From NCBI GenBank assembly GCA_038078835.1, contig JBBTQI010000009.1, positions 3,714-67,713 of the forward strand: a stretch of DNA of 64,000 nucleotides, in the 5' to 3' direction. Both the position numbers and the translations under genes were made by a program. Position 1 is the stretch's first letter. The number at the start of each line of letters is the position of its first letter. This stretch comes from Patescibacteria group bacterium. GTDB lineage: Bacteria; Patescibacteriota; UBA1384; XYA2-FULL-43-10; 1-14-0-10-43-13. This document shows positions 35,058-64,000 of this stretch, one piece after another. Under the pieces are notes generated by a model. That model saw nothing but the letters and a program-made list of their open reading frames with translations, did no database searches and was not told the origin of the DNA.

Positions 35058-35070
35058 CTTTGGATATAAC

Positions 35071-37914
35071 ATGAGTGAGACAGAAACACCAACAAATCTA
35101 GCCGGAACGCAGACTCAAGCAGAAACATTTGAGGCCAGTTCTGGTAACGCTGAAAAACCGGTTTATGAGCGCAGGCCGCACCATCCTCTTTCTGCAGCTC
35201 CCCGTTTAATCTTGCGGACTCTTCATCGTTATCGGACCGATATCGAAGCATCTAATAACCAGGCGGATTTAACTCAAGATCAAATTAGCGTCATGATTCT
35301 GGAGGCGATGGCCTTAGCCGATGAATTTCTGGTCCGTCCTACAACTGTTTCTGCCGAGGAGCAGCAAAGGAAAAGGATAGAGGAAAACGAACTCTTTCAT
35401 GGAAAAAGCGGAACAAAATTGGCGGATGCTTTTTTGCAACAGTTGGTGCAGGGAGAAGAGACAGCGTTGTCGGAAGGAGAAAAGGTTGGAACCGAGGAAA
35501 AGATAGAAAGAAACATCGCTGAAATCCTCTCTCACAAACAGGTTAGGAATGAAATTCTGGAAATATTCAAACGGGAATATTCCGTGCGAAAAAATACACA
35601 CGCCAAAATTTCGGAATTAGTTGGTATCGAAAATGCCATTGACACTGCTCGTGCCAGATACAGGCAACTTCAGAACGAACCGAGAGGTATTGATTCTGAG
35701 AGCACAGCTTTGCCAACCGGTATATTACAATCAAATCTCCATAAATACCTTGAGATCATCAGTCAACTTGAGCGAAGAATCAGATTAAAGGAGGCAAGGC
35801 TTAAACCTGAAGAATCAGGGTTGCTTGAAGCATCGCGCCTTCTCAAAATGAAGCGCCAGATGAGAGAGTACGGCTTTGCTATGACCGAATCGCGCCAAGC
35901 GCTTTTTGACCGGATCAGCGAACTGGCCAGCCAAGGATACAAAATATTCTTGGGCGGTCCGACCGGCACGGGCAAAACATCATTGGCTGTTTTTGCCATG
36001 CGCCAGATTATCGGTGACGAAAACAGGTTTGAAGTCGTCTCTTGGTCGCCCGAGACAACCACTCGGGATTTATTCGGCAAACCGATCATTAAAGCAACCG
36101 AGGAAGGCAATATCGAGAGTTCAATGCAAAAGGGGCCTTATGCCAGAATCTTAACCGGCGAAACAAGGGGTATTATCAACGATGAATTCACCGCCGGAAC
36201 GACAGCTTCCCAACTTTCATTGAAGAGAATTTATCAAGCGCACGCCGGCGAAGAGATTAATCTGCCTGGTTTTAACGGCACAGTCTTCACTAAGGAAAAT
36301 TACCTTGAGATTTCGACGGGCAATTTACGCTCCAAGCAACACAAAGAAAGAAGCGAGATGGACCCGGCCGTTGCCAGAGAATTCGTTTCTCTAAGCGTCC
36401 CCTTTATGAATAGCGAGGAGGCGGAGAAGGTAATGTTGTCCAGCCTTATTCATGAAACCGGCTTCTTGCCAATATCTAGAACCGAAGCAGAGATGGTAAA
36501 TCAACTTTGCCGAGCGGCCGAGTTTAGCCAAAAAGCGTTTGAAGACGAATTTACTCCCGAAGAAAAACAGAGCGATCTGTATAAGCAGATCGACCCAAGC
36601 GGTGCCGGGGTTCACTTAACTAAAACATTTTTCGATCCGGCCACGCTTTTTAGACTGGTCGACGGAATTTCCGGAAGACCATTCAAGGAAAATCTGCGGG
36701 TAAATTTAGAAAGGGAAATCAACGAGAGTCCTCATCTTAAAACTTTGCCGCACGAGAAAGAAGCTTTTCTTAAAATTCTTAAAGCTTTCGGTTTTAATCT
36801 TAAGGCAGGGAAGCCGGAAGATTTCTATAGACCAAAATCAACACCTTCGGGGAGTCAAAAACCGTATATACTTCCTTCAGAGCAAGGATTCTTATCAACT
36901 GTCGAAAAAATAACCGAGGATCAATTTGAGGGAGCCGGCCAAGCGGGAAGCTCTGGCGCGGAAAGAGTCGGAGACGGAGAGTGGCCATTTAAGGAAGAGG
37001 AGATGAGCCAGGAAAAAATCGCTGAAATTTACGATCGCTATGCCCGAGTTTATGAACAAGAGGGCATTGTCGAGAACGGCCGGATTGCTCCAAGCCTCAT
37101 TTCGACCGAGGTCAGACAACTCGGTTTGGATTTTGCTATGCCGACCAGAGAAGAGTTTCTGCAATTTATTGCCGAACATTCAGAGAAGGAGAAAAGGTTA
37201 ATTGGTCTTGGTTTGATTGAACCGGTCATTGTACCGGTAGCCGCCGACTTAGGCGAAGCTATTCCTGTAACGGCCAGTGAAGAGTACCGCTATAGCGGTT
37301 TGCTTGATATTGTCGCCGCCAAAATCAAAGAACTGGGAGAGGCCGGCCAGCTTCTTGGCAGTGACGGCACGCAAATTACTTGTAATCCCAAATGGCCGAT
37401 CTATGTTAATGATTTATACAAAAAGCTGCGTTTTATGCTCCAAAAAAAAGACGGCACTTTGCAAGGCGGGTTAACGCAAAAGACTTATATCGAAGAGCAG
37501 CAAAAAGACGGCCACCCCTTCCCGGGCTGGGCAATTTACTTTAAGGAAAGGGGCAATATATTGCCTCGAAACAGAGACAGCCAGCCGGATTTAACTGATA
37601 TGACGGCCGATAAAGAGTTATCAAAATATATCGAGGCACTCCATGATCCCAATAAATTAAATATGACCGGCTCCTCGGTTCATCTTGAACTCATGCTTCT
37701 CCTCGAGTCGCTTATCAGAGACAAGAAAGTAACGCGCGACTGGAACAATAATCAAGATGCCGGAGCGGTTCTTGGTGCCAACACCTTTGAAGGTTCCGGC
37801 CGCGTGCCGTTCTACGCCTGGCGTCGCGGCGCTGGCCAGTTAGACCTGAACGCCTACTATCCCGACAATCACTTCTCTGATGTTGTCGGTGTGCCTGCCG
37901 GTGAGATCAGCTGA
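35071..37914 (+). CDS. Large AAA+ ATPase (MoxR/AAA_5-like) with a hypervariable C-terminal region (DGR variable repeat)
   Basis: 947 aa. Walker A 'LGGPTGTGKTSLA' and Walker B 'GIINDEF'. The last ~38 codons are the variable-repeat partner of a template repeat 310 nt downstream. Confidence 0.6.
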   Translation: MSETETPTNLAGTQTQAETFEASSGNAEKPVYERRPHHPLSAAPRLILRTLHRYRTDIEASNNQADLTQDQISVMILEAMALADEFLVRPTTVSAEEQQRKRIEENELFHGKSGTKLADAFLQQLVQGEETALSEGEKVGTEEKIERNIAEILSHKQVRNEILEIFKREYSVRKNTHAKISELVGIENAIDTARARYRQLQNEPRGIDSESTALPTGILQSNLHKYLEIISQLERRIRLKEARLKPEESGLLEASRLLKMKRQMREYGFAMTESRQALFDRISELASQGYKIFLGGPTGTGKTSLAVFAMRQIIGDENRFEVVSWSPETTTRDLFGKPIIKATEEGNIESSMQKGPYARILTGETRGIINDEFTAGTTASQLSLKRIYQAHAGEEINLPGFNGTVFTKENYLEISTGNLRSKQHKERSEMDPAVAREFVSLSVPFMNSEEAEKVMLSSLIHETGFLPISRTEAEMVNQLCRAAEFSQKAFEDEFTPEEKQSDLYKQIDPSGAGVHLTKTFFDPATLFRLVDGISGRPFKENLRVNLEREINESPHLKTLPHEKEAFLKILKAFGFNLKAGKPEDFYRPKSTPSGSQKPYILPSEQGFLSTVEKITEDQFEGAGQAGSSGAERVGDGEWPFKEEEMSQEKIAEIYDRYARVYEQEGIVENGRIAPSLISTEVRQLGLDFAMPTREEFLQFIAEHSEKEKRLIGLGLIEPVIVPVAADLGEAIPVTASEEYRYSGLLDIVAAKIKELGEAGQLLGSDGTQITCNPKWPIYVNDLYKKLRFMLQKKDGTLQGGLTQKTYIEEQQKDGHPFPGWAIYFKERGNILPRNRDSQPDLTDMTADKELSKYIEALHDPNKLNMTGSSVHLELMLLLESLIRDKKVTRDWNNNQDAGAVLGANTFEGSGRVPFYAWRRGAGQLDLNAYYPDNHFSDVVGVPAGEIS
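37792..37905 (+). repeat. DGR variable repeat (VR1) at the 3' end of the AAA+ gene
   Basis: ~114 nt. It is ~88% identical to 38225-38328. 13 of 15 mismatches fall where the downstream copy has adenine (the downstream copy has AAC/AAT codons; here they read CGC/TTC/TAC/TAT/GCC). Confidence 0.65.
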
Positions 37915-38893: not shown

Positions 38894-40366
38894 ATGGACT
38901 CAAATTTTTATAACTGGCAAGGAACCGGCGAAGAGAAAGAAACGAAACTCCTAACGCTCTCCGAATTTCGACGCGAGCTCGGTATTCCGCTGGTTCTGGC
39001 AAAAAAAATGATCGTCTGGGGAATTGTCGGGGCCTATACGACTGTTGACGGAACAATCAGAATTACCGAGGGGGAGCTGCTCAAGACAAGGGAACTGTTA
39101 AAGGATCCCCGGAAGAAGATTAAACTTTTTGCCCGCTCGCTCGGTCCCGGTTTTATTACCGGAGCCTCAGATGACGATCCCTCCGGCATTGCCACATATT
39201 CAGCCGTCGGAGCTAAATTTGGTTTCTCCCTGCTCTGGATGTGCCTTTGGACGACGCCGATGATGCTGGCAATTCAGGAGACATGCGCCCGGATCGGAGT
39301 GGTGGCCAACAAGGGCTTGGCCGGAGTCCTGCAGAAACACTACAGCCGCAAGATTGTAATATCGGTTGTAGCCTTACTAATTATCGCTAATACGGTCAAC
39401 ATCGGGGCTGACATCGGGGCGATGGCGGCATCTTTGCGATTGCTGGTTGATATTAACTTTTTTCTTGCCGCTATTATTTTTACCGCTCTAATAGTTGTTA
39501 TAGAGGTATTTGTGCCCTATTGCGCTTATGTCAAGGTCTTAAAATGGCTGACGGTCTTTATCTTTGCTTATATTGCCACGGGAATTATCGTCCGGCCCGA
39601 TTGGTTGGTGGTTGTCCGGGAAACCTTCACGCCCGAATTGCGTTTTGATGATGATTACATCTTTGCCGTTGTCGCTTTTTTGGGGACGACCATTACGCCC
39701 TACCTCTTTTTCTGGCAAACCTCGGAGGAGGTCGAGGAGAATATTCTGGCAAACGGCAATAAAGTGCTCACGCCCTACAAACGGACACAGCGTATCGCCC
39801 GGATGCGTACCGATGTTAAGGCCGGCATGATTCTCTCCAATCTGGTGGCCTTCTTTATTGTTTTAACAACCGCCTCGGTTCTTTTTAAGCACGGCGTTAC
39901 CAATATTGAATCGGCCGAGCAGGCGGCCGAAGCACTTAGGCCGTTGGCCGGAGAGTACGCCTATCTTCTCTTCGCCTTGGGAATTATCGGCACGGGTTTG
40001 TTGGCCGTACCGATACTGGCCGGCGCGGGCGCTTATGCTTTGAGTGAAGTAATGAATTGGCGCGAGGGCTTGGGCCAGAAGTTTTCTAAGGCCAGGGGCT
40101 TCTACATTATTATCATTCTTTCGATTATTGCCGGTATGGCACTCAACTTTATTGGCATAAACCCGATTGTCGCTCTCTACTACACCGCCTTCTTGAACGG
40201 GGTAATTGCCGTTCCTCTCCTGATCGTAATTATGATAGTCGGGAACGATCCAAAAATAATGGGTCAGGAAACTCATCCGAAGTGGGTTAAGTTTTTTGGC
40301 TGGTTGGCTGTGGTCTCAATGGCGCTGGCCGTGTTTTTGTCCCTTGGCCTTAATTTTGTGGTATAG
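38894..40366 (+). CDS. mntH: NRAMP-family divalent metal transporter with an N-terminal ~70-aa extension
   Basis: 'GPGFITGASDDDPSGIATYSAVGAKFGFSLLW' is an Nramp-like signature. There are ~11 TM segments. The N-terminal extension 'LSEFRRELGIPLVLAKKMIVWG' looks HTH-like. Confidence 0.7.
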   Translation: MDSNFYNWQGTGEEKETKLLTLSEFRRELGIPLVLAKKMIVWGIVGAYTTVDGTIRITEGELLKTRELLKDPRKKIKLFARSLGPGFITGASDDDPSGIATYSAVGAKFGFSLLWMCLWTTPMMLAIQETCARIGVVANKGLAGVLQKHYSRKIVISVVALLIIANTVNIGADIGAMAASLRLLVDINFFLAAIIFTALIVVIEVFVPYCAYVKVLKWLTVFIFAYIATGIIVRPDWLVVVRETFTPELRFDDDYIFAVVAFLGTTITPYLFFWQTSEEVEENILANGNKVLTPYKRTQRIARMRTDVKAGMILSNLVAFFIVLTTASVLFKHGVTNIESAEQAAEALRPLAGEYAYLLFALGIIGTGLLAVPILAGAGAYALSEVMNWREGLGQKFSKARGFYIIIILSIIAGMALNFIGINPIVALYYTAFLNGVIAVPLLIVIMIVGNDPKIMGQETHPKWVKFFGWLAVVSMALAVFLSLGLNFVV

Positions 40367-47776: not shown

Positions 47777-49240
47777 ATGTCGAAAAAAAAGAAAAAATTC
47801 CAACCTCCAAAAACCGAGGAAAATCACGGCGGCAGGGCCAGCCAAGCAGGCAAAATTACCGTTCCGATTAAGGGGATGCACTGCCGTTCCTGTGAAATCT
47901 TGATTAGTGAAAAGCTGGCCGAGGTTGCCTCGGTTAAAAATGTCCACATCAGTTATAAAAAAGGCCAAGCCGAAATTTATTCCAACGGCCCGCTTGATAT
48001 GGAGGCGGTCGCGGCGGCGGTTGCCTCAGCCGGATACGAAGTCGGAATTGATGACTCGAGGGCCTGGATTACCTCTGATCCCAAGAAGTATAAAGACTTA
48101 GCCGCAGCCCTTGCCATTCTTCTGGCGCTCTACTTTATTGCGAAAAATCTTGGACTCACCAGCATTAATGTCGGCGGCTCCGGCGGCAATCCATCAAACT
48201 TAATGGTCGTTCTTGTTATCGGGCTGACTGCCGGCATTTCAACCTGCATGGCACTGGTTGGCGGTCTGGTTCTCGGTGTCTCGGCTCGTTTTACAGAAAA
48301 GCATCCCGAAGCAACACCGGTTCAGAAGTTCCGTCCCCATCTCTTTTTTGTGGTCGGCCGCACTGTTTCTTACTTTATTCTCGGCGGTGTCATCGGTTTG
48401 GCGGGCAAAGCATTTCAGCTTTCCGGTCCGAGTTTGGGCGTTTTAACTATTCTGGTCGGTGTGGTTATGTTGGTTCTTGGCGCTCAGCTTACGGAGGTCT
48501 TCCCAAGATTGTCGAGCGGCGGCTTAACATTGCCCTCTGGTATCAGTCGGTTTTTGGGCTTAAGAAAACGCCACCACAAAGAGTACAGCCACACCAATGC
48601 GCTCATCACGGGGGCGTTGACCTTTTTCCTGCCCTGCGGCTTTACTCAGGCGATGCAGTTATACGCTATGAGTACCGGAAGCTATTGGTCCGGGGCAATG
48701 ATTATGGGAGTCTTTGCGCTGGGAACCGCGCCCGGACTTCTTGGTATCGGCGGCCTAACCTCGGTTATACAGGGTGCTTTTGCTAAAAATTTTTTCAAGT
48801 TCGCCGGACTTCTGGTTATTGCTTTGGCATTTTTTAATCTGTCGAACGGCTGGAGCCTGACAGGATGGAGGTTTCCCAACCCACTACGAAATTACACATC
48901 GAACAAAAGTACAAATATTACAAATTCTACAATCCAAGAGAAAAATGGTGTGCAGGTTGTTAATATGACCCAGGATTTATACGGCTATGCACCAGACAGC
49001 TTTACTGTCCGGCGGGGCGTGCCGGTCAAGTGGATCATTAACTCAACCGACAATCGGTCATGCGCCGCCAGTATTATATTTTCTAAATTTGGCATCAGAA
49101 AAATACTCAAGACCGGGGAGAATGTTATCGAGTTCACGCCAAACGAAACCGGTGATTTCCGCTTCTCCTGTTCAATGGGAATGTACCGCGGCGTCTTTCG
49201 GGTCATTGAAGACTCTGGTAAAGCGCTCTCGCAACGATAG
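47777..49240 (+). CDS. HMA-domain + DsbD_2-like polytopic membrane protein with a C-terminal Met-rich cupredoxin-like domain
   Basis: 'GMHCRSCE' is the heavy-metal-associated motif. Membrane-embedded 'ISTCMALVGG' and 'FFLPCGF'. C-terminal 'FSCSMGMYRGVF'. Confidence 0.5.
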   Translation: MSKKKKKFQPPKTEENHGGRASQAGKITVPIKGMHCRSCEILISEKLAEVASVKNVHISYKKGQAEIYSNGPLDMEAVAAAVASAGYEVGIDDSRAWITSDPKKYKDLAAALAILLALYFIAKNLGLTSINVGGSGGNPSNLMVVLVIGLTAGISTCMALVGGLVLGVSARFTEKHPEATPVQKFRPHLFFVVGRTVSYFILGGVIGLAGKAFQLSGPSLGVLTILVGVVMLVLGAQLTEVFPRLSSGGLTLPSGISRFLGLRKRHHKEYSHTNALITGALTFFLPCGFTQAMQLYAMSTGSYWSGAMIMGVFALGTAPGLLGIGGLTSVIQGAFAKNFFKFAGLLVIALAFFNLSNGWSLTGWRFPNPLRNYTSNKSTNITNSTIQEKNGVQVVNMTQDLYGYAPDSFTVRRGVPVKWIINSTDNRSCAASIIFSKFGIRKILKTGENVIEFTPNETGDFRFSCSMGMYRGVFRVIEDSGKALSQR

Positions 49241-49286
49241 TCGTCCGCCCTCATTTGCGAACAAGAGTGGAATCTTGACAACTCCT

Positions 49287-49320
49287 AATAATACCTATAC
49301 CATAGGTGTAGGTATTATTA
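49287..49320 (+). promoter_or_regulatory. Candidate CsoR operator (ATACC-N-GGTAT pseudo-palindrome) upstream of copZ-copA
   Basis: 'taatacctataccataggtgtaggtattatta'. It is followed by two related hairpins at 49335-49357 and 49402-49441 with 'ggtttct' loops. Confidence 0.4.
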
Positions 49321-49456
49321 CAAGAGAGCGAATACCCTGCGGTTTCTACCGCCAGGGATGAAGCGATATAAATAGTGTCGCCGCAGGCGACCACAGAGCG
49401 CAACAAAACACCCTGTGGTTTCTGCTGCAGGGTGTTTTGTTAGCGAGAGGAACTTT

Positions 49457-49666
49457 ATGGTTATCATCAATTTTTCTTTGACCGGCGCTTTTGAGTGTCA
49501 GGCTTGCACCAAACTGGTAAGTATGGAGCTGGAGGAGATTCCCGGAGTTAGGAGTGTCGAGGTTAATCTGGACGGGGCTGTCCGGATTGAATCCGACCGG
49601 GAGATCGATCTCGCGGAGATTGCCGATGCGCTTAAAGGCACGGATCATTCTTTGGCGAAGGAGTAA
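49457..49666 (+). CDS. copZ: Copper chaperone (HMA domain, CopZ-like)
   Basis: 'MVIINFSLTGAFECQAC' is a variant MxCxxC motif. RBS 'gagagg'. Confidence 0.6.
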   Translation: MVIINFSLTGAFECQACTKLVSMELEEIPGVRSVEVNLDGAVRIESDREIDLAEIADALKGTDHSLAKE

Positions 49667-49681
49667 TTCTGAAGGGCGACG

Positions 49682-52156
49682 ATGAAGAACAATGAATCTA
49701 AAAACATCTCTCTCTCGATCTCCGGAATGCACTGCTCTTCCTGCGCGGGCATCATTGAGAGAGCGCTTAAAAAGACGCCGGGAGTAAAATCGGCCAATGT
49801 TAACTTTGCGGCCGAAAAAGCCCTTATCCACCTCAACGAAAAAGGCGCTTCTCCCCTAGATCTTATTGGCGCTGTGAAAAAAGCCGGCTACAAGGCCCAG
49901 CTTATTGACAGAAATGATACCGAGCATGAATCAGCTAAGCGTCAAAGAGAGACTGTTGCTCTCTGGAAAAAGTTCCGCTTCAGTTTCACGCTAAGCCTCC
50001 CTATGCTCTACTTTATGCTGCTTGATTTTTTTAAGTGGCTGCCGGGCGCCGAGCTGTTGCCGCCCTATTTTGGCGTTATTTCCTTTCTTCTGGCTACACC
50101 GGTCCAATTCATCGTCGGCGCCGGTTTCTATAAAGGGATGTGGTCAAGTCTTCGTATGAAGACATTTAATATGGATTCCCTGATTGCTATTGGTACTTCG
50201 ACGGCTTATCTCTACAGTTTGGTTAATTTCTTTATATTTATGGCGCAGAACGGAACATTGCTCGGTTTGGCCGGAGAAAAGATTCCCGAACTTTACTTTG
50301 AAACTGCCGCTTTTCTCATAACCTTTGTTGGGCTTGGCAAATGGTTGGAGGCGCGGGCAAAGGGCCGAACATCGGAAGCGATCAAGAAATTAATGGGGTT
50401 GCAGGCTAAGACGGCTCGTGTTATTCGGAATGGTGTGACCTCGGATATTCCAATCGACGAAGTTGTAACCGGCGATATTATTCTGGTTCGCCCCGGTGAG
50501 AAAATCCCGGTTGACGGTAAGATCGTCAAGGGCTCATCTGCCATTGATGAGTCAATGATTACTGGCGAATCCTTGCCGGTTGAGAAAAATGTTGGTGATG
50601 GTGTTGTCGGTGCTACAATTAACAAAACCGGCTCATTCGAATTTGAAGCCACTCGTGTCGGTTCGGAAACGACTTTGGCTCAGATCATTCGCCTGATTGA
50701 AGAAGCCCAGGGTTCCAAGGCGCCAATTCAAGCGTTTGCCGACCGCATCTCGGCTTACTTTGTGCCAATTGTGATCGCATTAGCCATCTTGACATTTATC
50801 GTTTGGTTTTTGATACTTGGTGAAAGTTTGTCTTTCGCCCTTATGGCTTTCACTGCCGTCATTGTTATAGCCTGTCCCTGCGCTTTGGGCCTGGCAACAC
50901 CGACAGCAATTATGGTTGGCACCGGCAAGGGCGCCGAGCATGGCATTCTTGTTAAGGGCGGCGAACCGCTTGAAAAAGCCTGCAAGATAAACACAGTAGT
51001 TTTTGATAAAACCGGAACATTGACCAATGGTAAACCGGTTGTGACTGATATTTTGACTCTGAGCGATGTGGATGAAGATGAAGTTTTAGCAATTGCGGCC
51101 AGTCTGGAAAAATCCTCAGAACATCCTTTGGCTGAGGCAATTTACACTTATGCCAATAAAGAGTCCATCGCCCTGGAAGATGTCGTCAATTTCAAAGCAA
51201 TCCCCGGCCATGGAGTCGAGGGCAATATTGGCAAGACTAAATATTATTTTGGTAACCGGCGGCTTATTGAAACGATTGGGCTGGATACTCAGCTTCAAGT
51301 TTCAAGTTTCAAGCTTCAAGAACTAGAGGAGCAGGGTAAGACTGCCATGATTCTGGCGACGAAAGAAAAAATTGTCGGCATCATCGCCGTCGCCGATACA
51401 GTTAAAGAAACTTCCAAGGAAGCTGTGGCTAAATTACAAGCAAGGGGCATTACTGTCTATATGATCACCGGCGACAATGAACGCACTGCTAAAGCCATTG
51501 CCAAGGAGGTTGGCATTACTAACGTCCTGGCAGAAGTTCTACCCAAAGATAAAGCCGCTGAAGTCAAAAGGCTTCAGAATGACCAGCCGCCGGGAGACAA
51601 TAACCAAACAAAGACATCTGGCAATTTGAGAATTGGAACTCGGAATTTATTTGGTTTTTGGAGTTTGGTATTTGGTGTTTCCACAACTCGTCAAAAACGA
51701 GTTGTGGCCATGGTTGGCGACGGTATTAATGATGCTCCCGCTCTGGCTCAGGCCGATCTGGGCATTGCCATGGGTAGCGGCACGGATGTAGCTATGGAAA
51801 CGGGCGGCATTGTTATCATTAAAAATGACCTAAATGATGTCGTAAATGCTATTCAGTTGTCCATGGAAACAATGAGTAAAATCAAGCAAAATATGTTCTT
51901 TGCTCTCTTCTATAATGTTGCCGGCATTCCGATTGCCGCCCGGGTTTTTGCCGGCGCCGGCCTGATTTTAAAACCGGAGTTGGCCGGCTTGGCTATGGCT
52001 CTCTCCTCTGTCTCGGTTGTAACCAACTCTCTTTTGCTTCGCCGCTATCAGCCAAACCGCAGAAACTGGCTTTCCCTCATTGCTCCCCCTGTAATGATCG
52101 TGTTCTTCTTCCTTCTTTTTCTTGAATTTGCCCGCTTGAGCACGGAGATGAAGTAA
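49682..52156 (+). CDS. copA: Copper-translocating P1B-type ATPase CopA, with a ~40-aa in-frame insertion
   Basis: 'GMHCSSCAG' (HMA), 'CPC', 'DKTGTLT' and '[10 protein letters not shown]'. The insertion '[41 protein letters not shown]' at ~51585-51700 contains the perfect palindrome 'ccacaactcgtcaaaaacgagttgtgg' and a 'tttgg' repeat. There is also a 'caagtttcaagtttcaagcttcaag' tandem at 51294-51320. Confidence 0.92.
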
Positions 52157-55998: not shown

Positions 55999-57111
55999 TT
56001 GTCTCTTATTGCACTCAAAAACCTACTTCAAGAAAGAACTAAGTTGGCTATCTGTATTGGTGGCGTAGCTTTTTCTGTTCTCCTTATCCTGATTATGAAC
56101 GGTCTTTATCAGGGCTGGAGCGTTAAAATGGGAGCCTATCCCGAAAGCATTCCGGCCGATCTTTGGGTGGAGCAAGCCGGAGTTGGCGACATGTATCATG
56201 CACTCTCGTTTTTGCCGGACAATCTCTCCGCTAAATTAGAGAGTATCGAAGGGGTAAGGAGCGCCAACAAATATCTTGGCCGGCAGGCGATGTTTGATTA
56301 CAACGGCAAAGACCGATCTCTTTTTTTGGTTGGACTTGATACAAAAACCGGCACAACAAAGCCGTACAAAATGAAGGAGGGCAGTTGGCAGAATTTGAAA
56401 GACGGAGAGATAATTATCGATCAAGTATTTGCCAAAGATACAAGTTTGAAAATTGGCGATACTTTAGACATTAACGGCGAAAAACTAAGAATCGCCGGCA
56501 TCTCTGACGGCGGCAACATAATCACTTTCTCTTTTGCTTTCGTCACCATGCAACAGGCGGCCAAAATGTTCAATTTGGGCGAAAAGGTTAATTTCTATCT
56601 CTTAAATATTGACTCTGCCGCAGATTTGTTAACTGTTAAGAATCGTGTCGAAAAAGAAATATCCGGATCAAAGGTTCTGACTAAGACCGAGTATGTTACA
56701 ACTTCGAAGAAGGTTATCACCGACACATTTCTCCCAATTATTGCAGTATTGGTTGTTATCGCACTGGCGGTTGGCATTGCCGTTATCGGACTGACTACCT
56801 ACTCGGCCACAATTGAGAAAGCCCGCGAGTATGGGGTATTAAAAGCTATTGGCCTCAATAACCTTCAACTTTTCAAGACTGTTATTATCCAGGCGCTAAT
56901 TTCCGGTTTAATCGGCTACGTGGTGGGTGTTGGATTAGCCTATCTTGTCGGATATATTGCCACGAATATAGTATCTGCTTTTGTGACCCTAATTCGTCCG
57001 GTTGATCTGCTTTGGGTTTTTGGGGCTACGGTTCTAATGTCTTTAATTGCCGCCTATATCCCGATGAAAAGAATTTTTTCTATTGATCCAGCAGAGGTGT
57101 TTAAGTCTTAA
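55999..57111 (+). CDS. ABC transporter permease (FtsX-like/MacB-type)
   Basis: N-terminal TM, a large extracytoplasmic domain, then three C-terminal TMs. Confidence 0.75.
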   Translation: MSLIALKNLLQERTKLAICIGGVAFSVLLILIMNGLYQGWSVKMGAYPESIPADLWVEQAGVGDMYHALSFLPDNLSAKLESIEGVRSANKYLGRQAMFDYNGKDRSLFLVGLDTKTGTTKPYKMKEGSWQNLKDGEIIIDQVFAKDTSLKIGDTLDINGEKLRIAGISDGGNIITFSFAFVTMQQAAKMFNLGEKVNFYLLNIDSAADLLTVKNRVEKEISGSKVLTKTEYVTTSKKVITDTFLPIIAVLVVIALAVGIAVIGLTTYSATIEKAREYGVLKAIGLNNLQLFKTVIIQALISGLIGYVVGVGLAYLVGYIATNIVSAFVTLIRPVDLLWVFGATVLMSLIAAYIPMKRIFSIDPAEVFKS

Positions 57112-57113
57112 CT

Positions 57114-57833
57114 ATGAGCATATTAGAAATCAATAATTTATCAAAGGTCTATGGCTCGGGCCACACGCAAGTTAAAGCAGTGGATGATATTTCGTTGCAG
57201 ATCAATGAAAGTGAGATTATTTTGGTTATGGGGCCAAGCGGCAGCGGCAAAACAACATTTTTGACGATGATCGGAACCTTACTCAAGCCGACTTCGGGAC
57301 AGATTTTGTTTGATGAAAAGAATCTGGCTAAGATGTCCGAGAGGGATTTACCAAAGTTCAGGCTGGATAATCTGGGCTTTGTTTTTCAGTCGTTTAATCT
57401 TTTGTCGTCTCTGACAGCACTGGAGAATGTCGCTATTCCATTAATTGCCGCCGGAGTTAAAAAGGGTGAAGCACTTAGGAGAGCCAAAGATGCCTTGGAA
57501 AAATTGGAGCTCGGCCAACGATTGAGCAATCTCCCCCGCGACCTCTCCGGTGGTGAGAAACAGCGCGTCTCTATCGCCAGAGCCTTAGTCAACAATCCCA
57601 AAATTATTCTGGCTGATGAGCCGACGGCTAATCTTGACTCTAAAATCGGCCACGAGGTCATGACCCTTTTTTGTTCCATTGGTTGTGAACAGCAAAAAAC
57701 TGTCATCATTGTTAGCCATGATGAACGGATCAAAGAGGTCGCGCACAGAGTACTCTACATTGAAGATGGCAAATTGATCCGGGCAGAAAAAGGCCGCCAC
57801 GCGGAAACGTGCCTGATGAAGGGTCGCCACTGA
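57114..57833 (+). CDS. ABC transporter ATP-binding protein (LolD/MacB-type)
   Basis: 'GPSGSGKTT', 'LSGGEKQRVSIARAL', 'ILADEPTANLD'. Confidence 0.9.
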   Translation: MSILEINNLSKVYGSGHTQVKAVDDISLQINESEIILVMGPSGSGKTTFLTMIGTLLKPTSGQILFDEKNLAKMSERDLPKFRLDNLGFVFQSFNLLSSLTALENVAIPLIAAGVKKGEALRRAKDALEKLELGQRLSNLPRDLSGGEKQRVSIARALVNNPKIILADEPTANLDSKIGHEVMTLFCSIGCEQQKTVIIVSHDERIKEVAHRVLYIEDGKLIRAEKGRHAETCLMKGRH

Positions 57834-57903: not shown

Positions 57904-58713
57904 ATGGCAAAGATACTTGACGGTAAGAAAATCAGGGATGAGATACTGGCTGGTCTCAAAGAGAGTCTTGCAGCTCGGGGAACCAAACCGACTTTGGCGG
58001 TTATTCTGGCCGGCGACGATCCGGTTTCAGCGGCTTACGTCGGCTTGAAGCAGAAGATCGCCGAAAAGATCGGTGTCGGTTTTGAATTGTATCGGTATAG
58101 TCAGAATGCCTCGGAGAATGAGATTTTAACTAAGATCCGGTCATTAAATAATAACCTCGGTATTAATGGAATTATGGTTCAAATTCCCTTGCCATCCGGT
58201 TTTGACCGCGATAAATTGATCGAGGCAATTTCGCCGGACAAAGATATCGACGGCCTGCGCTACTGTGTAGGTCTCTCCTCTGATTTTTTCCCGCCCGTTG
58301 TCTTGGCCGTCGCCAGAGCACTGGAACTCTCCGGAACAAACCCGGCGCGATCAGATGTTGTCATTATCGGCCGAGGCTTTCTGGTGGGTGATCCGCTTTG
58401 TCGATATTTTGAGGGTAAGATCAAAAAGCTAGTAGTCGCCGATTCATCAACACCTGATTTAACCTCAATCATAAGACAGGCGAATGTGGTCATTTCTGCC
58501 GTCGGGCGGGCCGGCATCATCACCGCGGAGATGGTCAAGGAGAGTGTCGTGCTAATCGATGCCGGCACGAGCGAGGCGGGCGGCGAGATTAGGGGTGATA
58601 TTGACCCCAAGGCACATGCTAAAGCTTCATTTTATACTCCCGTCCCCGGCGGTATCGGCCCGGTGACAGTAGCAATGCTGATACAGAATTTAGTTAGTAC
58701 TGTATTGACATAG
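57904..58713 (+). CDS. folD: Bifunctional 5,10-methylene-THF dehydrogenase/cyclohydrolase
   Basis: 'MAKILDGKKIRDEI...GIMVQIPLP...DKDIDGL...VVIIGRGFLVGDPL' is the FolD pattern. Confidence 0.9.
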   Translation: MAKILDGKKIRDEILAGLKESLAARGTKPTLAVILAGDDPVSAAYVGLKQKIAEKIGVGFELYRYSQNASENEILTKIRSLNNNLGINGIMVQIPLPSGFDRDKLIEAISPDKDIDGLRYCVGLSSDFFPPVVLAVARALELSGTNPARSDVVIIGRGFLVGDPLCRYFEGKIKKLVVADSSTPDLTSIIRQANVVISAVGRAGIITAEMVKESVVLIDAGTSEAGGEIRGDIDPKAHAKASFYTPVPGGIGPVTVAMLIQNLVSTVLT

Positions 58714-59069
58714 TTTTAATAAAATATTAAGGTTTGCTCTTGGCGGGGACCAGTTTATTCTCTATAATAGAATAGAACTAATAATATTCGCGTTTCGGAG
58801 GGAGCCATTTGGCGTTTCTAAAGCGGTTTAGAGATGTTTTGAGGTTAAACAAGAGGGGGAACTCTTTTCGCGTGTCTGTTTCAGTATCCACCTCGAAAGT
58901 GAATGCGCCCAAACACCTTCGAGGTGAAATGGTCTCGGAAGTTGTCTGTCTTCATCCGCGCCACTCAAAACCTCGACTTAAAAGTTTAAGTAAGGCTCAT
59001 TCTTATCTTTGCGCCAAGTCGCCTCGCTATCACGCTTGGCATCATCATCCCCACCATCAGAAGATTCAC

Positions 59070-62000
59070 ATGGGTGTTTTAACAACGACCATTGTTCTCT
59101 TGGTGTCCGTGATAGTCCAGACTTTTCTAGGTGGAATGAATGCTCAGGCCGCCACCAATACCTGGAACTTTGGCAGTTCGGCCGATTATACCTATAGTGA
59201 TTCCTCTGTCGAAGTAACCTCCAACACGGCCAGGCTGAAGGCGGGTCAATATGCCGATGACGCTAACACCCAGGCTCTCTGGCACTTTGACGAGAGCTCC
59301 GGCACGGCGGCCGACTCAGCCGGCAACTCCAATACAGCCACACTGCAAAATAGCGCAACTTACGCCGCCGCCCGCGCCGGCAACGGCCTTTCTTTAAACG
59401 GCAGCAAACAGTACGCCTCGGCCGGCGATTCGGCGACGCTCTCATTGTCATCAAACTTAACTCTGGAGGCCTATACCAAATTCAGCAGCGCCTTTGACGC
59501 CACCGACGACATCAGTCAATACATTGTAGATAAGGGCAACTACAAGCTCTACTTTGACCAGTCCGACGGTAAGTTGAAATTTGAACTCGAGAACAATACC
59601 GCCAAAAGCTGGGACAAGGTCGGCGAGGATGTTAACAGCAGTTGGGTTGGCAGCGGCCTTGGTCGATCCCAGGTTTTTGCCGAATATGGCGGCAGTTTGT
59701 ATGTTGGTCTTTACGCTAATCCGAATGGGGCAAGGGTTTACAAGTACAGCGGCAGCGGTGCGGCTTGGACCAAAGTTGCCGGCGACGGTGTTAATGGTTC
59801 CTGGATGAGTGCAGGTTATGAGGGTGTCTTTGCTCTGGAGCCTTATAACAGTCAACTTTGCGCCGGTTTAGGTGACATTGCCGCCGGCGCCAGCGAGGTT
59901 TGGTGCTGGAATGATACCGCCTGGACAAAAATCGGCGGAGACGGTGTTAATGGCTTGCCGGCAGGACTAGAGGGTGTTCAGAGTCTGGAGAGTGATGGAA
60001 CATATCTTTATGCCGGAGTGGGACGCGATGCTGATGAAGGAGATGTTTGGCGTTGGAACGGCACGACTTGGACTCAGATTGGCGGCGACGGCTTAAATTC
60101 CAGTTGGGATACAAGCTATGAGTTTGCCTATTCGCTGGTTTACGCTGGCTCAACTCTCTATGCCGGTCTTGGTAGCTCCGCTGGCGATGCCGAGGTTTGG
60201 TCCTGGAACGGCACGACTTGGACTCAGATTGGCGGCGACACCCTGAAATTTTCCTGGGCCAACAGTACTTATGAGCAGGTTGCTTCGCTAGCCTCCGATG
60301 GTACTTACCTTTATGCCGGTCTTGGTAGCTCCGCTGGCGATGCCGAGGTCTGGCGCTACACTATTGCCACCGACACCTGGGGCGGGGCATTGATTGGCGG
60401 CGACGGCACCGGCTGGACCAACTCAACTTACGAACAGGTTCTCTCGCTCAATATTATCAGCGGGACGCTTTATGCTAGTTTGGGTACCAGCGCCGGCGAC
60501 GGCGAGGTCTGGTCCTGGAACGGCACGACTTGGACTCAGATTGGCGGCGACACCCTTAACTCCGGCTGGGACGCTAACTCAAGCAAGGAGAGTGCTTATT
60601 TGGGTACTTCCGGCAGCAGTTTGGTCGCCGGCACCGGCTCGGGTACCAATGACGCCGAAACCTGGCTTTGGAACGGCTCGGCTTGGAGCTGGATTGGCGG
60701 CAAAGATTGGACATCCTGGGGAGCAGCTATGCCGAGCATTGTCCAAGCTATGGCCATTAATGACGGTAAACTCTATGTTGGTTTAGGCGGAGCAAGTAAA
60801 GAGGCGACTGTTTGGGAGTATAACGGCTCAACCTGGGCGCACGTGGGGGGCAATTATAATTCAAGCTGGGACGACAGCATTGAATATGTCTACAGTTTAG
60901 CTTCATATAATAATAAGATTTATGCCGGCTTAGGCAACTCCGCTGGCGATGGCGATCTGTGGGAGTACAACGGCAGCAACGACTGGACGCAAATCGGCGG
61001 CGACGGTTTAAACTCCGGTTGGGCGGCCGCTATTTACGAAGCGGTCCTGACAATGACGGTTTACCAGAGTGAGCTTTATGCCGGTTTGGGCATAAGCGAC
61101 AGCGCTGATGCCGAAGTCTGGAAATATAACGGCAGTGCCTGGGCCAAGGTCGGCGGTGATAGTACAAATTCCAGCTGGGCTGGCGGCCAGAGAGTCAATT
61201 CGCTTGTCGCCGACGGTACCTACCTTTATGCCGGTCTAGGTACGGAAGCGGTGAACTATGCTTACTCGGCTCAAGTCTGGCGCTGGGACGGCGCAACCTG
61301 GACCATCATCGGTGGCAGCCACTACAACAACAGCTGGGCCAAAGCATACTTATGGGAAGCGTACACCGCGGCGGTTTTTAATAACAAGGCTTACTTTGGT
61401 TTTGGTTATTTTACTGGGACTAACAGCGCTGTTGTCTGGGAGTATGATGGCACGAATTGGCAGGCGATCGGCGGCAACGGTCTTAACTCCTCCTGGACGG
61501 TCAATACCTATGAAGTCGTTCTATCAATGGCCTCTAACTCAAACTATCTGTATGTTGGACTTGGCTCGAATGCCGGTGACGCCGAAGTCTGGCGCTACAA
61601 CGGCACAACCTGGAGTAAGATCGGCGGTGACGCTCTGAATTCCAGCTGGGCCGACAGCACCTATGAGAGTGTTTACAGCCTGGCGGCCAATGATACGACC
61701 CTCTATGCCGGTTTGGGCAATAGTGCTGATGACGGCGAGGTCTGGTCCTGGAACGGCTCAAGCTGGAGCCAGATTGGGGGGGATAGTTTGAATTCCGGCT
61801 GGACTGATGCCGACAACATCACTGGCGTTGGCTCGCTCCTTCTCTCCGGTTCAACGCTTTATATTGGTACCGGTTGGAGCACTGGCACGGCGGATGTCTG
61901 GTCATGGAACGGCTCAAGCTGGAGCCAGATCGGCGGTGACACCTTGAAATCTTCCTGGGCAAGCAGTACGTATGAAGGAGTTTATAATTTGGTTACCGAT

Positions 62001-64000
62001 GGTACTTACCTTTATGCCGGTCTTGGTAACAGCGGCGGCGACGCCGAGGTCTGGCGCTATAACATTGCCACTGATACCTGGGGCGGGGCGCTCATTGGTG
62101 GCGACGGCACCGGCTGGGCGGCGGCTACTTATGAGGCTGTCTGTGATTTGGCTGTTTCCGGTTCGACTCTCTATGCCAGCTTGTGCTTTAGCGCCAATGA
62201 CGCCGAGGTCTGGTCATGGAATGGGACAACATGGACGCAGATCGGCGGCGATAGCGTTAACTCCTCATGGGGTGCGGGCTATGAGTACGCCCGGTCGCTT
62301 TTGGTTTGGGGCTCTAATCTGTATGTCGGTCTTGGCAATAGTTTTACTGATGCTAGAATTTGGCGTTGGAACGGCACGACCTGGACTCAAATCGGCGGCA
62401 CTGGCGCTTACGCCGGCCCGGATGATCTTTCCAGTATTGATCAGGTAACCGCTCTGGCGATTAATCAGGGTCTGCTCTATGCCGGTCTTGGTAACAGCGG
62501 CGGCGACGCCGAGGTCTGGTCCTGGAACGGCACGACCTGGACTAAGGTCGGCGGCGATAGCCTGAACTCCAGTTGGACGGTTGATTATGAATATATTACT
62601 TCAATGACCAGTTATAGCGGCCTGCTTTACGTTGGTCTTGGCAACAATAGTGGCGACGCCGAGGTTTGGTCTTGGAATGGCACCATCTGGACTCAAATCG
62701 GCGGCGACAGTCTTAACTCCGGTTGGACTAGCGGCTATGAAACGGTTTATGCTATGGCTGTCTACAGTGGCAAACTCCACATTGGCACCGGCACCACCGC
62801 CGGCGACGCTGAGGTGTGGGCTTATGGCGCCAACTCTGTTTTGGCTTCGACCACCTCGAGCTGGACGACCGGCTGGTACCACGTAGCGGCAACTTACGAT
62901 GGCTCGACGATGAGGCTTTATGTCAACGGGACAGAAGAAGCGTCGCTGGTTGTTTCGATTTCGCTAGCCGATTTATCCACGCCGCTTTATGTCGGTTCGG
63001 CTTTGGGCAACGCCAATATGGCCGAGCCTCTGCCGCTCTTTACCGGTACCATAGACGAGGTGCGCATCTCCAATACCGCTCGGAGCAGCTTTACGATAGC
63101 GCCTTACGCCAGCACCCGTGTAACCATCCAACCCAACAATTCTCTGGATGATGCCGATGTTTTGGCTTGGAGCGGTTTTGCCGTCTCTGAGACCGTAAAC
63201 GGCGGGACGATCACTTATCGTTTATCGGACGATGCCGGCACGAGCTGGAAATATTATACCGCCGGCGCCTGGACCGCCTCGTCAAGCACAACTCAGGCGA
63301 ATACGGCGGCTGATGTCAATACTAACATCGGCTCTCTTACCGTTACTAACGACGGCGTCCTTTGGCAGGCCGTGCTTCTGGGCAGCGGCGACCAGGTTGT
63401 AACCCTAAACAGCGTGGCCATTACTTACACTGAAGATACCGATAATCCAACCAATCCAACCACAATATCAGCTTTAAATGCTTCCGGTGGTTCGACTACG
63501 CTCACCACAAGCAACTGGTATAGTTACGCTACCCCTTATTTCTCCTGGAGCGGGGCAAGTGATGGCGGTTCTGGTATTGAGGGCTACTGGGTTTACTTTG
63601 GGACATCATCAAGCGCCGATCCGCGGACGGCCGGAACTTGGCAAACTGGCGCTACTTACACCGCCTCGAGTTTGTCTGACGGCTCGACCTACTATCTGCG
63701 CGTTTTAGCCAAAGACAAGGCCGAGAACTATCCGGCTGCGGCTTGGGATGCCTTCACCTACAAATATGACGGTACGGCCCCAACCCCGCCGGCCTTTGTC
63801 TCTGTCTCGCCCTCGGGTTACTCCACCAGCCAAAACTTCACCTTCCTCTGGCCCGGTTCGGGTAGCTCCGCCGCCTCAGATACAGGTTCCCCGACGACCG
63901 GTTCGGGTGTGGCCAGCTATCAGTACAAAACGGGAGCGGCGTCGGGAAGTTATTCCTCTTGGTCAACCGCCACAACAGAGACACAGATTGCTTTAACTAG
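59070..64000 (+). CDS. Giant secreted or surface protein (partial, >1640 aa; continues past the window) with ~25+ tandem ~50-aa repeats plus LamG/ConA-like and FN3-like domains
   Basis: Frame 0 is open from 59070 to the window end, confirmed by spot translations at 60180, 61260, 62460, 62820 and 63900. Signal peptide 'MGVLTTTIVLLVSVIVQTFLGG'. Repeat unit '...LYAGLGNSAGDAEVWSWNGTTWTQIGGDxLNSSW...'. A LamG-like segment 'WYHVAATYDGSTMRLYVNG...IDEVRISNTARS'. All the ORF-track entries in 59-64 kb are shadows of this gene in other frames. Confidence 0.7.
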   Translation, partial: MGVLTTTIVLLVSVIVQTFLGGMNAQAATNTWNFGSSADYTYSDSSVEVTSNTARLKAGQYADDANTQALWHFDESSGTAADSAGNSNTATLQNSATYAAARAGNGLSLNGSKQYASAGDSATLSLSSNLTLEAYTKFSSAFDATDDISQYIVDKGNYKLYFDQSDGKLKFELENNTAKSWDKVGEDVNSSWVGSGLGRSQVFAEYGGSLYVGLYANPNGARVYKYSGSGAAWTKVAGDGVNGSWMSAGYEGVFALEPYNSQLCAGLGDIAAGASEVWCWNDTAWTKIGGDGVNGLPAGLEGVQSLESDGTYLYAGVGRDADEGDVWRWNGTTWTQIGGDGLNSSWDTSYEFAYSLVYAGSTLYAGLGSSAGDAEVWSWNGTTWTQIGGDTLKFSWANSTYEQVASLASDGTYLYAGLGSSAGDAEVWRYTIATDTWGGALIGGDGTGWTNSTYEQVLSLNIISGTLYASLGTSAGDGEVWSWNGTTWTQIGGDTLNSGWDANSSKESAYLGTSGSSLVAGTGSGTNDAETWLWNGSAWSWIGGKDWTSWGAAMPSIVQAMAINDGKLYVGLGGASKEATVWEYNGSTWAHVGGNYNSSWDDSIEYVYSLASYNNKIYAGLGNSAGDGDLWEYNGSNDWTQIGGDGLNSGWAAAIYEAVLTMTVYQSELYAGLGISDSADAEVWKYNGSAWAKVGGDSTNSSWAGGQRVNSLVADGTYLYAGLGTEAVNYAYSAQVWRWDGATWTIIGGSHYNNSWAKAYLWEAYTAAVFNNKAYFGFGYFTGTNSAVVWEYDGTNWQAIGGNGLNSSWTVNTYEVVLSMASNSNYLYVGLGSNAGDAEVWRYNGTTWSKIGGDALNSSWADSTYESVYSLAANDTTLYAGLGNSADDGEVWSWNGSSWSQIGGDSLNSGWTDADNITGVGSLLLSGSTLYIGTGWSTGTADVWSWNGSSWSQIGGDTLKSSWASSTYEGVYNLVTDGTYLYAGLGNSGGDAEVWRYNIATDTWGGALIGGDGTGWAAATYEAVCDLAVSGSTLYASLCFSANDAEVWSWNGTTWTQIGGDSVNSSWGAGYEYARSLLVWGSNLYVGLGNSFTDARIWRWNGTTWTQIGGTGAYAGPDDLSSIDQVTALAINQGLLYAGLGNSGGDAEVWSWNGTTWTKVGGDSLNSSWTVDYEYITSMTSYSGLLYVGLGNNSGDAEVWSWNGTIWTQIGGDSLNSGWTSGYETVYAMAVYSGKLHIGTGTTAGDAEVWAYGANSVLASTTSSWTTGWYHVAATYDGSTMRLYVNGTEEASLVVSISLADLSTPLYVGSALGNANMAEPLPLFTGTIDEVRISNTARSSFTIAPYASTRVTIQPNNSLDDADVLAWSGFAVSETVNGGTITYRLSDDAGTSWKYYTAGAWTASSSTTQANTAADVNTNIGSLTVTNDGVLWQAVLLGSGDQVVTLNSVAITYTEDTDNPTNPTTISALNASGGSTTLTTSNWYSYATPYFSWSGASDGGSGIEGYWVYFGTSSSADPRTAGTWQTGATYTASSLSDGSTYYLRVLAKDKAENYPAAAWDAFTYKYDGTAPTPPAFVSVSPSGYSTSQNFTFLWPGSGSSAASDTGSPTTGSGVASYQYKTGAASGSYSSWSTATTETQIALT

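Follow-up and report, generated by a model that had tools for sequence, protein, structure and literature searches.

A giant β-propeller and LamG protein of Patescibacteria, a putative surface fibril with a MacB/LolCDE-type transporter partner

The type VII superfamily of ATP-binding cassette (ABC) transporters (LolCDE, MacB, HrtBA, FtsEX) performs mechanical work on amphipathic or lipidic moieties of the outer leaflet, or on extracytoplasmic partners, and does not transport solutes across the membrane. Several described systems of this type have an extracytoplasmic partner (FtsEX-EnvC/PcsB, LolCDE-lipoprotein, MacAB and AatPC-dispersin), and all of them use the kind of MacB_PCD/FtsX permease and LolD/FtsE/MacB-like ATPase that was found beside the giant gene family described here. 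The family belongs to the Patescibacteria (CPR), ultrasmall bacteria that make up a large share of bacterial diversity and whose envelope building and cell contact are mostly unknown. The member under study lies at the end of a 64,000-nt stretch of DNA from a Patescibacteria group bacterium (GenBank assembly GCA_038078835.1, contig JBBTQI010000009.1, positions 3,714 to 67,713), referred to as the window.

A second point of comparison is provided by the sortase-anchored (LPXTG) fibrillar surface proteins of Gram-positive bacteria, which resemble the giant protein in their general plan of an extended n-region signal, a distal head, a stalk of immunoglobulin (Ig)/FN3-like domains and a C-terminal attachment element. 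The reading preferred here, to which we give about an even chance of being correct, is that the gene encodes a conserved patescibacterial surface fibril that is Sec-targeted, carries a LamG/propeller head on a stalk of fixed length and ends in a C-terminal helix handled by a cognate ABC transporter.

The giant gene and its transporter partner

An earlier note on this DNA had described an uninterrupted frame of about 5 kb starting at an ATG at position 59070. Re-examination of the frame from 59070 to 64000 (+ strand) gave 1,643 codons and zero stops, as claimed, and the frame was already open from 58785. The start proposed at 59070 was not upheld. A homologue search of a 5.8-billion-protein collection returned P0001, a protein of 2,343 aa that was 100% identical across the whole query and carries the NCBI name 'MAG: fibronectin type III domain-containing protein [Patescibacteria group bacterium]' (MAG, metagenome-assembled genome). 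From its length, the gene extends 700 codons past the window end. P0001 starts at the ATG at 58929, which is 141 nt (47 codons) 5' of the ATG first proposed, and this is most likely the true start. The longer model is favoured because of a GAGGTG at 58921-58926, 2 nt ahead of that ATG, a promoter-like site upstream and a conserved basic, His-rich tail (Table 1). The promoter-like site is a pattern match only, with two sites in the region against 0.9 expected. In P0003, a relative of the same length class, Phe is found where the start Met first proposed would sit. Amino-acid numbers given below as reader aa are counted from the ATG at 59070.

In three homologue contigs (L001, L002 and L004), the giant gene was followed, after a gap of 1-26 nt, by a gene for an ABC_tran ATPase (247-257 aa) and then by one for a MacB_PCD/FtsX permease (399-405 aa). 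The ATPase and permease genes overlapped by 4 nt in all three contigs, and the genes upstream differed each time. Among the fetched loci with at least 2.1 kb of DNA after the giant gene, the two genes were directly downstream on the same strand in 71 of 75; in at least two of the remaining four, the giant open reading frame (ORF) is interrupted. When the ORFs of 81 loci were clustered, the only conserved neighbours were the ATPase gene (75 loci) and the permease gene (71 loci). As judged from gene order, the giant gene is shown in the relatives to be the first of a predicted three-gene operon with a MacB/LolCDE-type ABC transporter. For the window gene, this transporter pair is predicted to lie immediately past position 64000. 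The transporter link, which is close to universal in the relatives and the most informative feature of the family, does not appear in the earlier note.

In the partner proteins the periplasmic core domain is complete, and the Walker A, signature and IIVADE motifs are all intact. In NCBIfam the ATPase matched LolD, FtsE and MacB best and the permease lolCE, MacB and FtsX, all with scores far below the equivalog cut-offs (LolD 211 bits against 307.75, FtsE 186 against 264.85, lolCE 81 against 362 and MacB 79-86 against 966). The nearest solved permeases were MacB, Spr0695, YtrF, LolF and LolC. By these matches the pair is assigned to the type VII ABC superfamily, but is none of LolCDE, FtsEX or MacB proper.

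A second MacB-type pair is present upstream of the giant gene in the window itself (Table 1). It was considered as the cognate transporter and set aside as a paralogue, its permease being 22% identical to the conserved partners and its gene order reversed. For comparison, identity between the cognate permeases of the two nearest relatives is 68%.

All 120 best relatives of the giant protein matched at E = 0. The majority of these (109 of 120) have 13 full and two half repeat units, equal to 14 propeller blades, in proteins of about 1,900-2,100 aa, and only P0001, P0002 and P0003 (2,343-2,393 aa) have about 20 full units. A further locus, L005 (CAZVFH010000003.1), matched all 1,200 query residues over 3,705 nt and is therefore of the 21-blade type; its longest open stretch of 2,121 codons suggests an interrupted gene or a shorter stalk, and the ABC pair is still downstream. 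When one genome per species was scanned, a relative was encoded in at least 283 species-level genomes with the patterns used. Of the best 80 loci, 61 were labelled Saccharibacteria, Saccharimonadales, Patescibacteria, Paceibacterota, Microgenomates or WWE3, 5 were unclassified and 14 carried other labels. The MAG labels of these 14 (L019, L021, L023, L025, L029, L038, L040, L044, L050, L052, L056, L066, L076 and L078) are Gammaproteobacteria, Bdellovibrionales, Pseudomonadales or Bacillota. As both the giant proteins and the ABC partners at these loci are of the usual family type, the bins are probably mislabelled patescibacterial ones.

Constraint on the proteins was examined with 60 random pairs drawn from 37 complete 14-blade loci. 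The median pairwise identity was 56.7% for the head, 56.2% for the stalk, 50.5% for the ATPase and 47.7% for the permease. Stalk identity exceeded permease identity in all 60 pairs, and head identity did so in 50. The pairs show strong purifying selection on the giant protein. Because of this conservation, the quantised blade numbers (14 or 21) and the fixed stalk length, the protein does not look like a rapidly diversifying, host-tracking adhesin.

Adhesins that track a host usually diversify and vary in repeat number. The giant protein could still be a conventional host-attachment adhesin, in which the head recognises a host surface molecule, the FN3 domains form a passive spacer and the transporter is unrelated, for example a co-transcribed efflux pump; this is considered unlikely. 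Like many adhesins, the protein is giant, Sec-targeted and composed of LamG, β-propeller and FN3 domains, and its structural neighbours include integrin α propellers and the lectin BP39L. Very large patescibacterial proteins have also been reported to be preferentially surface-targeted and to contain FN3, concanavalin and integrin-like domains (PMC13059738). An adhesin of this kind is difficult to reconcile with a stalk held at 945-983 aa and blades counted only as 14 or 21, or with a head and stalk more conserved than the cytoplasmic ATPase of their own operon. It also leaves unaccounted for a transporter link that persists in 71 of 75 loci from distant classes, where no other neighbour is constant, and no counterpart was found in the gene tables of the host-attached Southlakia. 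The earlier note had pictured a giant surface repeat protein of an episymbiotic-type organism. The giant surface protein and the organism, a Patescibacteria MAG, are retained, whereas the host-attachment role that this implied is disfavoured by the fixed length, the conservation and the Southlakia result.

The LamG domain and the propeller array

A unit hidden Markov model (HMM) was built from 17 strict repeat matches. It detected 20 full units at reader aa 206-1231, each with an E value of 1e-12 to 1e-28 and spaced 49-55 aa apart, together with a C-terminal half-unit at reader aa 180-196 and an N-terminal half-unit at aa 1232-1252. The signature LYAGLG-x4-DAEVWxWNGxxWxxIGGDxLNSxW and a period of about 51 aa were recovered, in keeping with the repeat first described; the count of more than 25 repeats was not, as there are 21 blade-equivalents (20 full units and two half-units). 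In the DNA, direct repeats with the period of the protein lie about 150-156 nt apart and are 60-85% identical, so that the repeats are old and diverged and no artefact of assembly. Identity between units at the protein level ranged from 25 to 79%. A clean seven-unit duplication was not seen in the unit identity matrix, and MAFFT scattered the gap relative to the 14-blade relatives.

Units 5 and 16 (reader aa 410-461 and 977-1029; window 60295-60433 and 61996-62134) are the sole close pair, with 79% amino-acid and 83% nucleotide identity, all other pairs having 25-68% protein identity. The two have in common an atypical, longer hairpin (VWRY.IATDTWGGALIGGDGTGW). Their likeness, 11 units apart, could reflect gene conversion or a late duplication.

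The intact protein gave a sub-threshold Laminin_G_2 match in Pfam (aa 1261-1335, 20.1 bits, profile positions 47-125 of 126). The N-terminal aa 60-180 resembled the first half absent from this match. In a splice test, aa 55-181 were joined to aa 1251-1352, removing the repeat array (aa 182-1250) and leaving 229 aa. The spliced sequence matched Laminin_G_3 (PF13385) with 84.3 bits (E 1.3e-23, profile positions 1-150 of 151, cut-off 27.6). The C-terminal piece alone scored 64.6 bits over profile positions 67-150, splicing adding about 20 bits, and the N-terminal piece alone had no Pfam match. The C-terminal part alone scored 54-65 bits in the relatives, and the homologue region equivalent to the N-terminal part was modelled as all-β with a predicted local distance difference test score (pLDDT) above 90.

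Because the spliced flanks give a full-length Laminin_G_3 match, the array of about 1,070 aa is assigned, from these profile matches, as an insertion in a loop of one LamG jelly-roll, the N-terminal part of which (about aa 60-179) is ahead of the repeats and the C-terminal part (about aa 1253-1345) after them. The LamG-like domain of the earlier note is therefore present, although not at the place given, since it flanks the repeats on both sides rather than following them. A nested insertion needs complementary half-units, because closure from both ends joins the entry and exit points. Both terminal half-units were β-strands in the models of the window sequence and of a homologue, and their presence at both ends is consistent with a 'velcro' closure that brings the ends of the array together.

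An AlphaFold model of reader aa 150-1349 (window 59517-63116), based on an alignment of 42 homologues, had a mean pLDDT of 74.7 and a predicted template modelling score (pTM) of 0.68. It was all-β, with four strands per unit of about 51 aa according to DSSP. The low-confidence stretches corresponded to positions with an alignment depth of 0-7 rows, a drop that arises because 14-blade relatives cannot cover 21 blades. The head of a 14-blade homologue was modelled with a pLDDT of 91.3 and a pTM of 0.90, again with four strands per unit, and superposed on single 7-bladed propellers at 2.3-2.8 Å.

When the first model was searched against the PDB with Foldseek, only multi-propeller proteins were matched (LRP2, Trm734, Elp2, DDB1, PorZ, BT4663 and Aip1; E 1e-17 to 1e-10). 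Tandem 2×7 propeller proteins ranked at the top, yet their query TM-scores (TMq) were 0.41 or lower. Other structural neighbours were integrin α subunits (about 300 residues, 2.6-2.8 Å), many WD40 domains, the sensor propellers of Bacteroides hybrid two-component systems (HTCS), GH74 enzymes and the lectin BP39L. The choice between a β-propeller and a β-helix, posed with the original description of the repeat, is clearly in favour of the β-propeller, given the four-stranded units and the Foldseek matches. In the models the blades close into predicted 7-bladed rings, the overall arrangement of which is matched by no solved structure. Fourteen blades would correspond to two propellers and, by analogy, the 21 blades of the window protein to three 7-bladed propellers. 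A head with two or three such propellers in a loop of a lectin-like jelly-roll would be of structural interest in its own right.

The repeat could not be placed in a named family, which agrees with what had been noted before. On the whole protein, no Pfam repeat family (Kelch, BNR, WD40, YD and others) matched at E ≤1, and NCBIfam gave no match. For Kelch, no Kelch_1-6 match was obtained at E ≤1 and the unit profile reached no Kelch protein in the PDB at E ≤10; the strand pattern (hydrophobic A strand, Y-x-G-x-G, V-W-x-W, W-x-x-I) is Kelch-like by eye only. For BNR/Asp-box repeats there was no BNR match, and the pattern S-x-D-x-G-x-T-W occurred only twice in the 2,343 aa of P0001, once in a blade and once in the domain that follows LamG. 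Among all PDB sequences, a 51-unit profile reached only the EPTP/EAR propeller of LGI1, with marginal E values of 0.0065-0.04 (best 19.6 bits) over four weak stretches, and Pfam EPTP was not reported on the giant protein. On this basis the repeat is treated as a β-propeller sequence family unmatched by Pfam and NCBIfam, with a faint EPTP-like echo.

The GH74 enzymes and Bacteroides sensors among the structural neighbours correspond to a different function, that of an extracytoplasmic glycan-binding sensor or enzyme. The propeller cleft would then bind a polysaccharide, in the style of a GH74 xyloglucanase or a Bacteroides hybrid two-component sensor, and the transporter would export or import a related compound or relay a signal. 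This is considered improbable. The giant protein is no more than 10-14% identical to these proteins, and since propellers of the WD40 and integrin types obtain equal scores, the likeness is one of fold. The Pfam and NCBIfam scans contained no glycoside-hydrolase or signalling domain, and the arrangement fits no solved two-propeller protein (TMq ≤0.41). MacB-type transporters are not known to act as importers.

Signal region, stalk and C-terminus

The N-terminal tail of the relatives has a median length of 44 aa and a net charge of +8. A His cluster precedes the hydrophobic segment in 31 of 115 relatives, and W/H-rich motifs such as WHHNPHH and WHEWxxHxH occur. The tail is read as the cytoplasmic n-region of an extended signal peptide or of a signal anchor. 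The W/H-rich tail may be a conserved n-region targeting motif; other giant surface proteins have extended signal peptides to which it would be analogous. In the hydrophobic segment at 59070-59150, the best 19-mer has a mean Kyte-Doolittle hydropathy of 2.13. Across the family an AxA-like site lies shortly ahead of the conserved W[DN]F with which the mature part begins. The N-terminus is accordingly predicted to be a Sec-type signal peptide that is cleaved. The signal peptide of the earlier note is thereby borne out as a hydrophobic N-terminal segment followed by AQA↓A, and its cleavage is a prediction.

The domain after LamG gave only a faint DUF5643 match in Pfam, and the columns GGxITYRLSxDxGxTWKYW within it are strongly conserved across the family. 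The perfect Asp-box S-D-D-A-G-T-S-W of the window (63225-63248, reader aa 1386-1393) is in this domain and not in a blade. The FN3-like sequence noted previously was confirmed: an FN3_DSCAM-like match at P0001 aa 1544-1620 (31.4 bits against a cut-off of 39) is the sole FN3 match inside the window, and P0001 has an fn3 match of 86.3 bits (cut-off 25) and three Pur_ac_phosph_N stretches (60.8 bits), mostly past the window.

The segment from the C-terminal LamG part to the first FN3 domains gave 186 matches at E ≤1e-30 in a 50%-identity representative library. About 23 of the best 150 matched that segment end to end, the rest being other giants that repeat one FN3-like domain. The domain concerned, at about 63432-63800 (reader aa ~1455-1580; SPYFSW...GSG[IV]xGYxVY...YYLRV.A.D.AGN), recurs 8-26 times in other giants (P0121-P0123 and P0209). 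In the representative library the giants that reuse it are 1,800-4,000 aa and more in length, which makes it look like a stalk module in wide use.

The LamG motif and the C-terminus are separated by 945-983 aa in 107 relatives and by 954 aa in P0001, or about ten domains. The C-terminus itself carries an amphipathic helix motif (I.G[KR]A.D.hL.hVh..L..hFGF) with four positions conserved at ≥90%, a hydrophobic moment of 0.45-0.58 and no hydrophobicity of transmembrane (TM) grade. The LPXTG-like pattern [LIV]P.[TSA]G occurred nowhere in P0001 nor in the last 50 aa of 115 relatives, and a C-terminal TM segment and basic tail were absent from the C-termini of P0001 and the relatives. The RTX pattern GGxGxDxUx was absent from P0001, which also had no RTX or HemolysinCabind match in Pfam. 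The Pfam scan of the protein contained no surface-layer homology (SLH) or other known S-layer anchoring module.

A stalk of fixed length, strong conservation and a giant gene present in one copy per locus set would also suit a structural envelope or S-layer-like coat of fixed thickness, with the transporter aiding its assembly. According to one report, S-layers are common among Patescibacteria, and S-layer proteins can have β-propeller and Ig-like folds (bioRxiv 10.1101/2024.05.28.596244). Such a coat is nonetheless judged improbable. Besides the lack of an SLH or other known anchoring module in the protein, nothing points to lattice-forming contacts or high expression, the family is found in only part of the Patescibacteria (283 species genomes with the patterns used), and the rod-and-head shape of a 2,000-aa protein fits fibrils better than lattice subunits.

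For the surface fibril with a transporter-handled helix, the following sequence of events is postulated. Cleavage of the signal would leave the C-terminal helix as the only membrane-proximal element, and the cognate ABC transporter would bind or handle this helix, either anchoring it or extracting and repositioning it in the manner of LolCDE or MacB. The stalk would hold the propeller/LamG head outside the wall at a set distance of tens of nm, and there the head might bind a conserved, probably glycan, ligand. Cytoplasmic ATP hydrolysis, relayed through the permease, would deploy or actuate the fibril. A more far-reaching version is an ATP-driven surface device, in which the transporter grips the helix of a rigid, fixed-length fibril (tens of nm) and extends, retracts, releases or switches the multi-propeller/LamG head outside the wall, the nested head being a new architecture and the repeat a new propeller family. 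Mechanotransmission would here act on a giant surface protein in place of a small substrate or a hydrolase activator. This version is put forward as a speculation that is probably wrong.

Several points weigh against the fibril reading. The link between helix and transporter is drawn from synteny, and the transporter pair is known from relatives, the window ending within the gene. If the N-terminus were not cleaved, the geometry would be inverted, the head lying next to the membrane and the helix forming the tip. The predicted 3×7 order follows from the blade count and the 14-blade homologue, and the model of the window sequence is a moderately confident one (pLDDT 74.7). Consensus-like repeats may inflate the identity of the head, which does not apply to the stalk. 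Literature searches gave no paper that deals with the family or with a giant surface protein served by its own MacB-type transporter. The gene tables of Southlakia, a cultivated Saccharibacterium characterised by transposon sequencing (Tn-seq), yielded no counterpart, no Laminin_G_3 match and no giant gene beside the two MacB_PCD permease loci examined. An essential Southlakia envelope protein annotated 'fibronectin III', SEML1_0890, was considered as an orthologue and rejected, being only 195 aa long.

Table 1. Features of the giant gene and its surroundings in the window (+, forward strand; amino-acid positions are reader aa)
Feature	Position	Strand	Basis
Second MacB-type pair: permease 55999-57111 and ABC ATPase 57114-57833; folD (57904-58713) between pair and giant gene	55999-57833	+	
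Promoter-like TTGGCG-17 nt-TATAAT, between folD and giant gene	58740-58768	+	Consensus scan, 10/12 matches
Giant gene, 5' 72% of coding sequence, codons 1-1690 of 2,343	58929-64000	+	P0001 identity; runs off window end
Basic, His-rich N-terminal tail, 47 aa, ending YHAWHHHPHHQKIH	58929-59069	+	P0001 sequence; conserved in closest relatives
Hydrophobic segment and AxA signal-peptidase-like site, MGVLTTTIVLLVSVIVQTFLGGMNAQA↓A	59070-59150	+	Hydropathy; AQA↓A
Pre-LamG strands and putative N-terminal part of split LamG jelly-roll, aa 28-179	59151-59606	+	Splice test, homologue model
Predicted β-propeller array, 21 blade-equivalents of ~51 aa, aa 180-1252	59607-62825	+	Unit HMM, models
C-terminal LamG part, aa 1253-1345, WYHVAATYDG...IDEVRISN	62826-63104	+	Laminin_G_2/Laminin_G_3 matches
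Putative β-sandwich domain after LamG, Asp-box SDDAGTSW at aa 1386	63117-63425	+	Conserved columns; fold inferred
Start of FN3/Ig-like stalk, ~700 aa more past window	63426-63998	+	FN3 matches in P0001

Elsewhere in the window, a metal-handling cluster (47777-52156, 38894-40366 and 2051-4690) encodes a DsbD_2, HMA and cupredoxin fusion, an HMA-type P-type ATPase, an Nramp transporter and a second cation P-type ATPase. Of two large neighbouring ORFs at 32268-37914 (+ strand), one (929 aa) has a transglutaminase core and the other (947 aa) matches nothing in Pfam; both are candidates for additional envelope or surface proteins. Between 18001 and 24000 there is a step in GC content, from 35.6% at 18-20 kb to 57% at 20-24 kb in a window of about 48%, and this may be an acquired segment.

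Comparison with known systems

The tandem 7-bladed proteins of known structure (Aip1, 1nr0; Elp2, 5m2n; PorZ, 5m11; the GH74 enzyme OXG-RCBH, 1sqj; and BT4663, 4a2l) are only 9-16% identical to the giant protein. Their rings are oriented differently (TMq ≤0.41), none is nested in a LamG domain and none has this repeat signature. The LGI1 EPTP/EAR propeller (5y2z, 5y31) resembles the array in four repeats, on the core Y..L....GD..V.kW.G..F, and is also 7-bladed and extracellular. It differs in being metazoan, in forming one propeller and in having a leucine-rich repeat (LRR) domain. Compared with the LamG/concanavalin domains of Laminin_G_3, the one described here would be interrupted near profile position 66/67 by a β-propeller array of about 1,070 aa (about 710 aa in most relatives), and no described LamG domain with such a propeller insertion was found.

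Large bacterial adhesins with split companion domains are known as RTX proteins of type I secretion systems (T1SS) in Gram-negative bacteria. The giant protein differs from them in lacking RTX repeats, in its Sec signal and in its link to an ABC transporter of the MacB type and not the T1SS type. PMC13059738 refers to work in which the ligand-binding domains of adhesins stand out from split companion domains (Graham et al. 2024, Proteins 92:933). Such domains are the closest conceptual parallel to the nested LamG/propeller head, in that a binding module set into a β-sandwich loop would point sideways from a long fibril.

With respect to the type VII systems that have an extracytoplasmic partner, the system described here has neither a membrane-fusion protein nor a coiled-coil hydrolase activator. 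No precedent was found in the literature for a propeller/LamG/FN3 protein of 2,000 aa as an obligate type VII partner. With respect to the LPXTG proteins, the giant protein ends in an amphipathic helix and is without LPXTG, TM segment or basic tail. If the proposed anchoring or actuation is true, displaying a giant surface protein, in a bacterium with a wall but no sortase-type anchoring, would join the known tasks of mechanotransmission of the MacB/FtsEX type. As a large, conserved and geometrically constrained family tied to one ABC transporter, the giant proteins offer a well-defined three-gene target. The parts themselves (β-propeller, LamG, FN3 and type VII ABC transporter) are known, and it is the nested head, the repeat, the fixed geometry and the transporter partnership in combination that are new.

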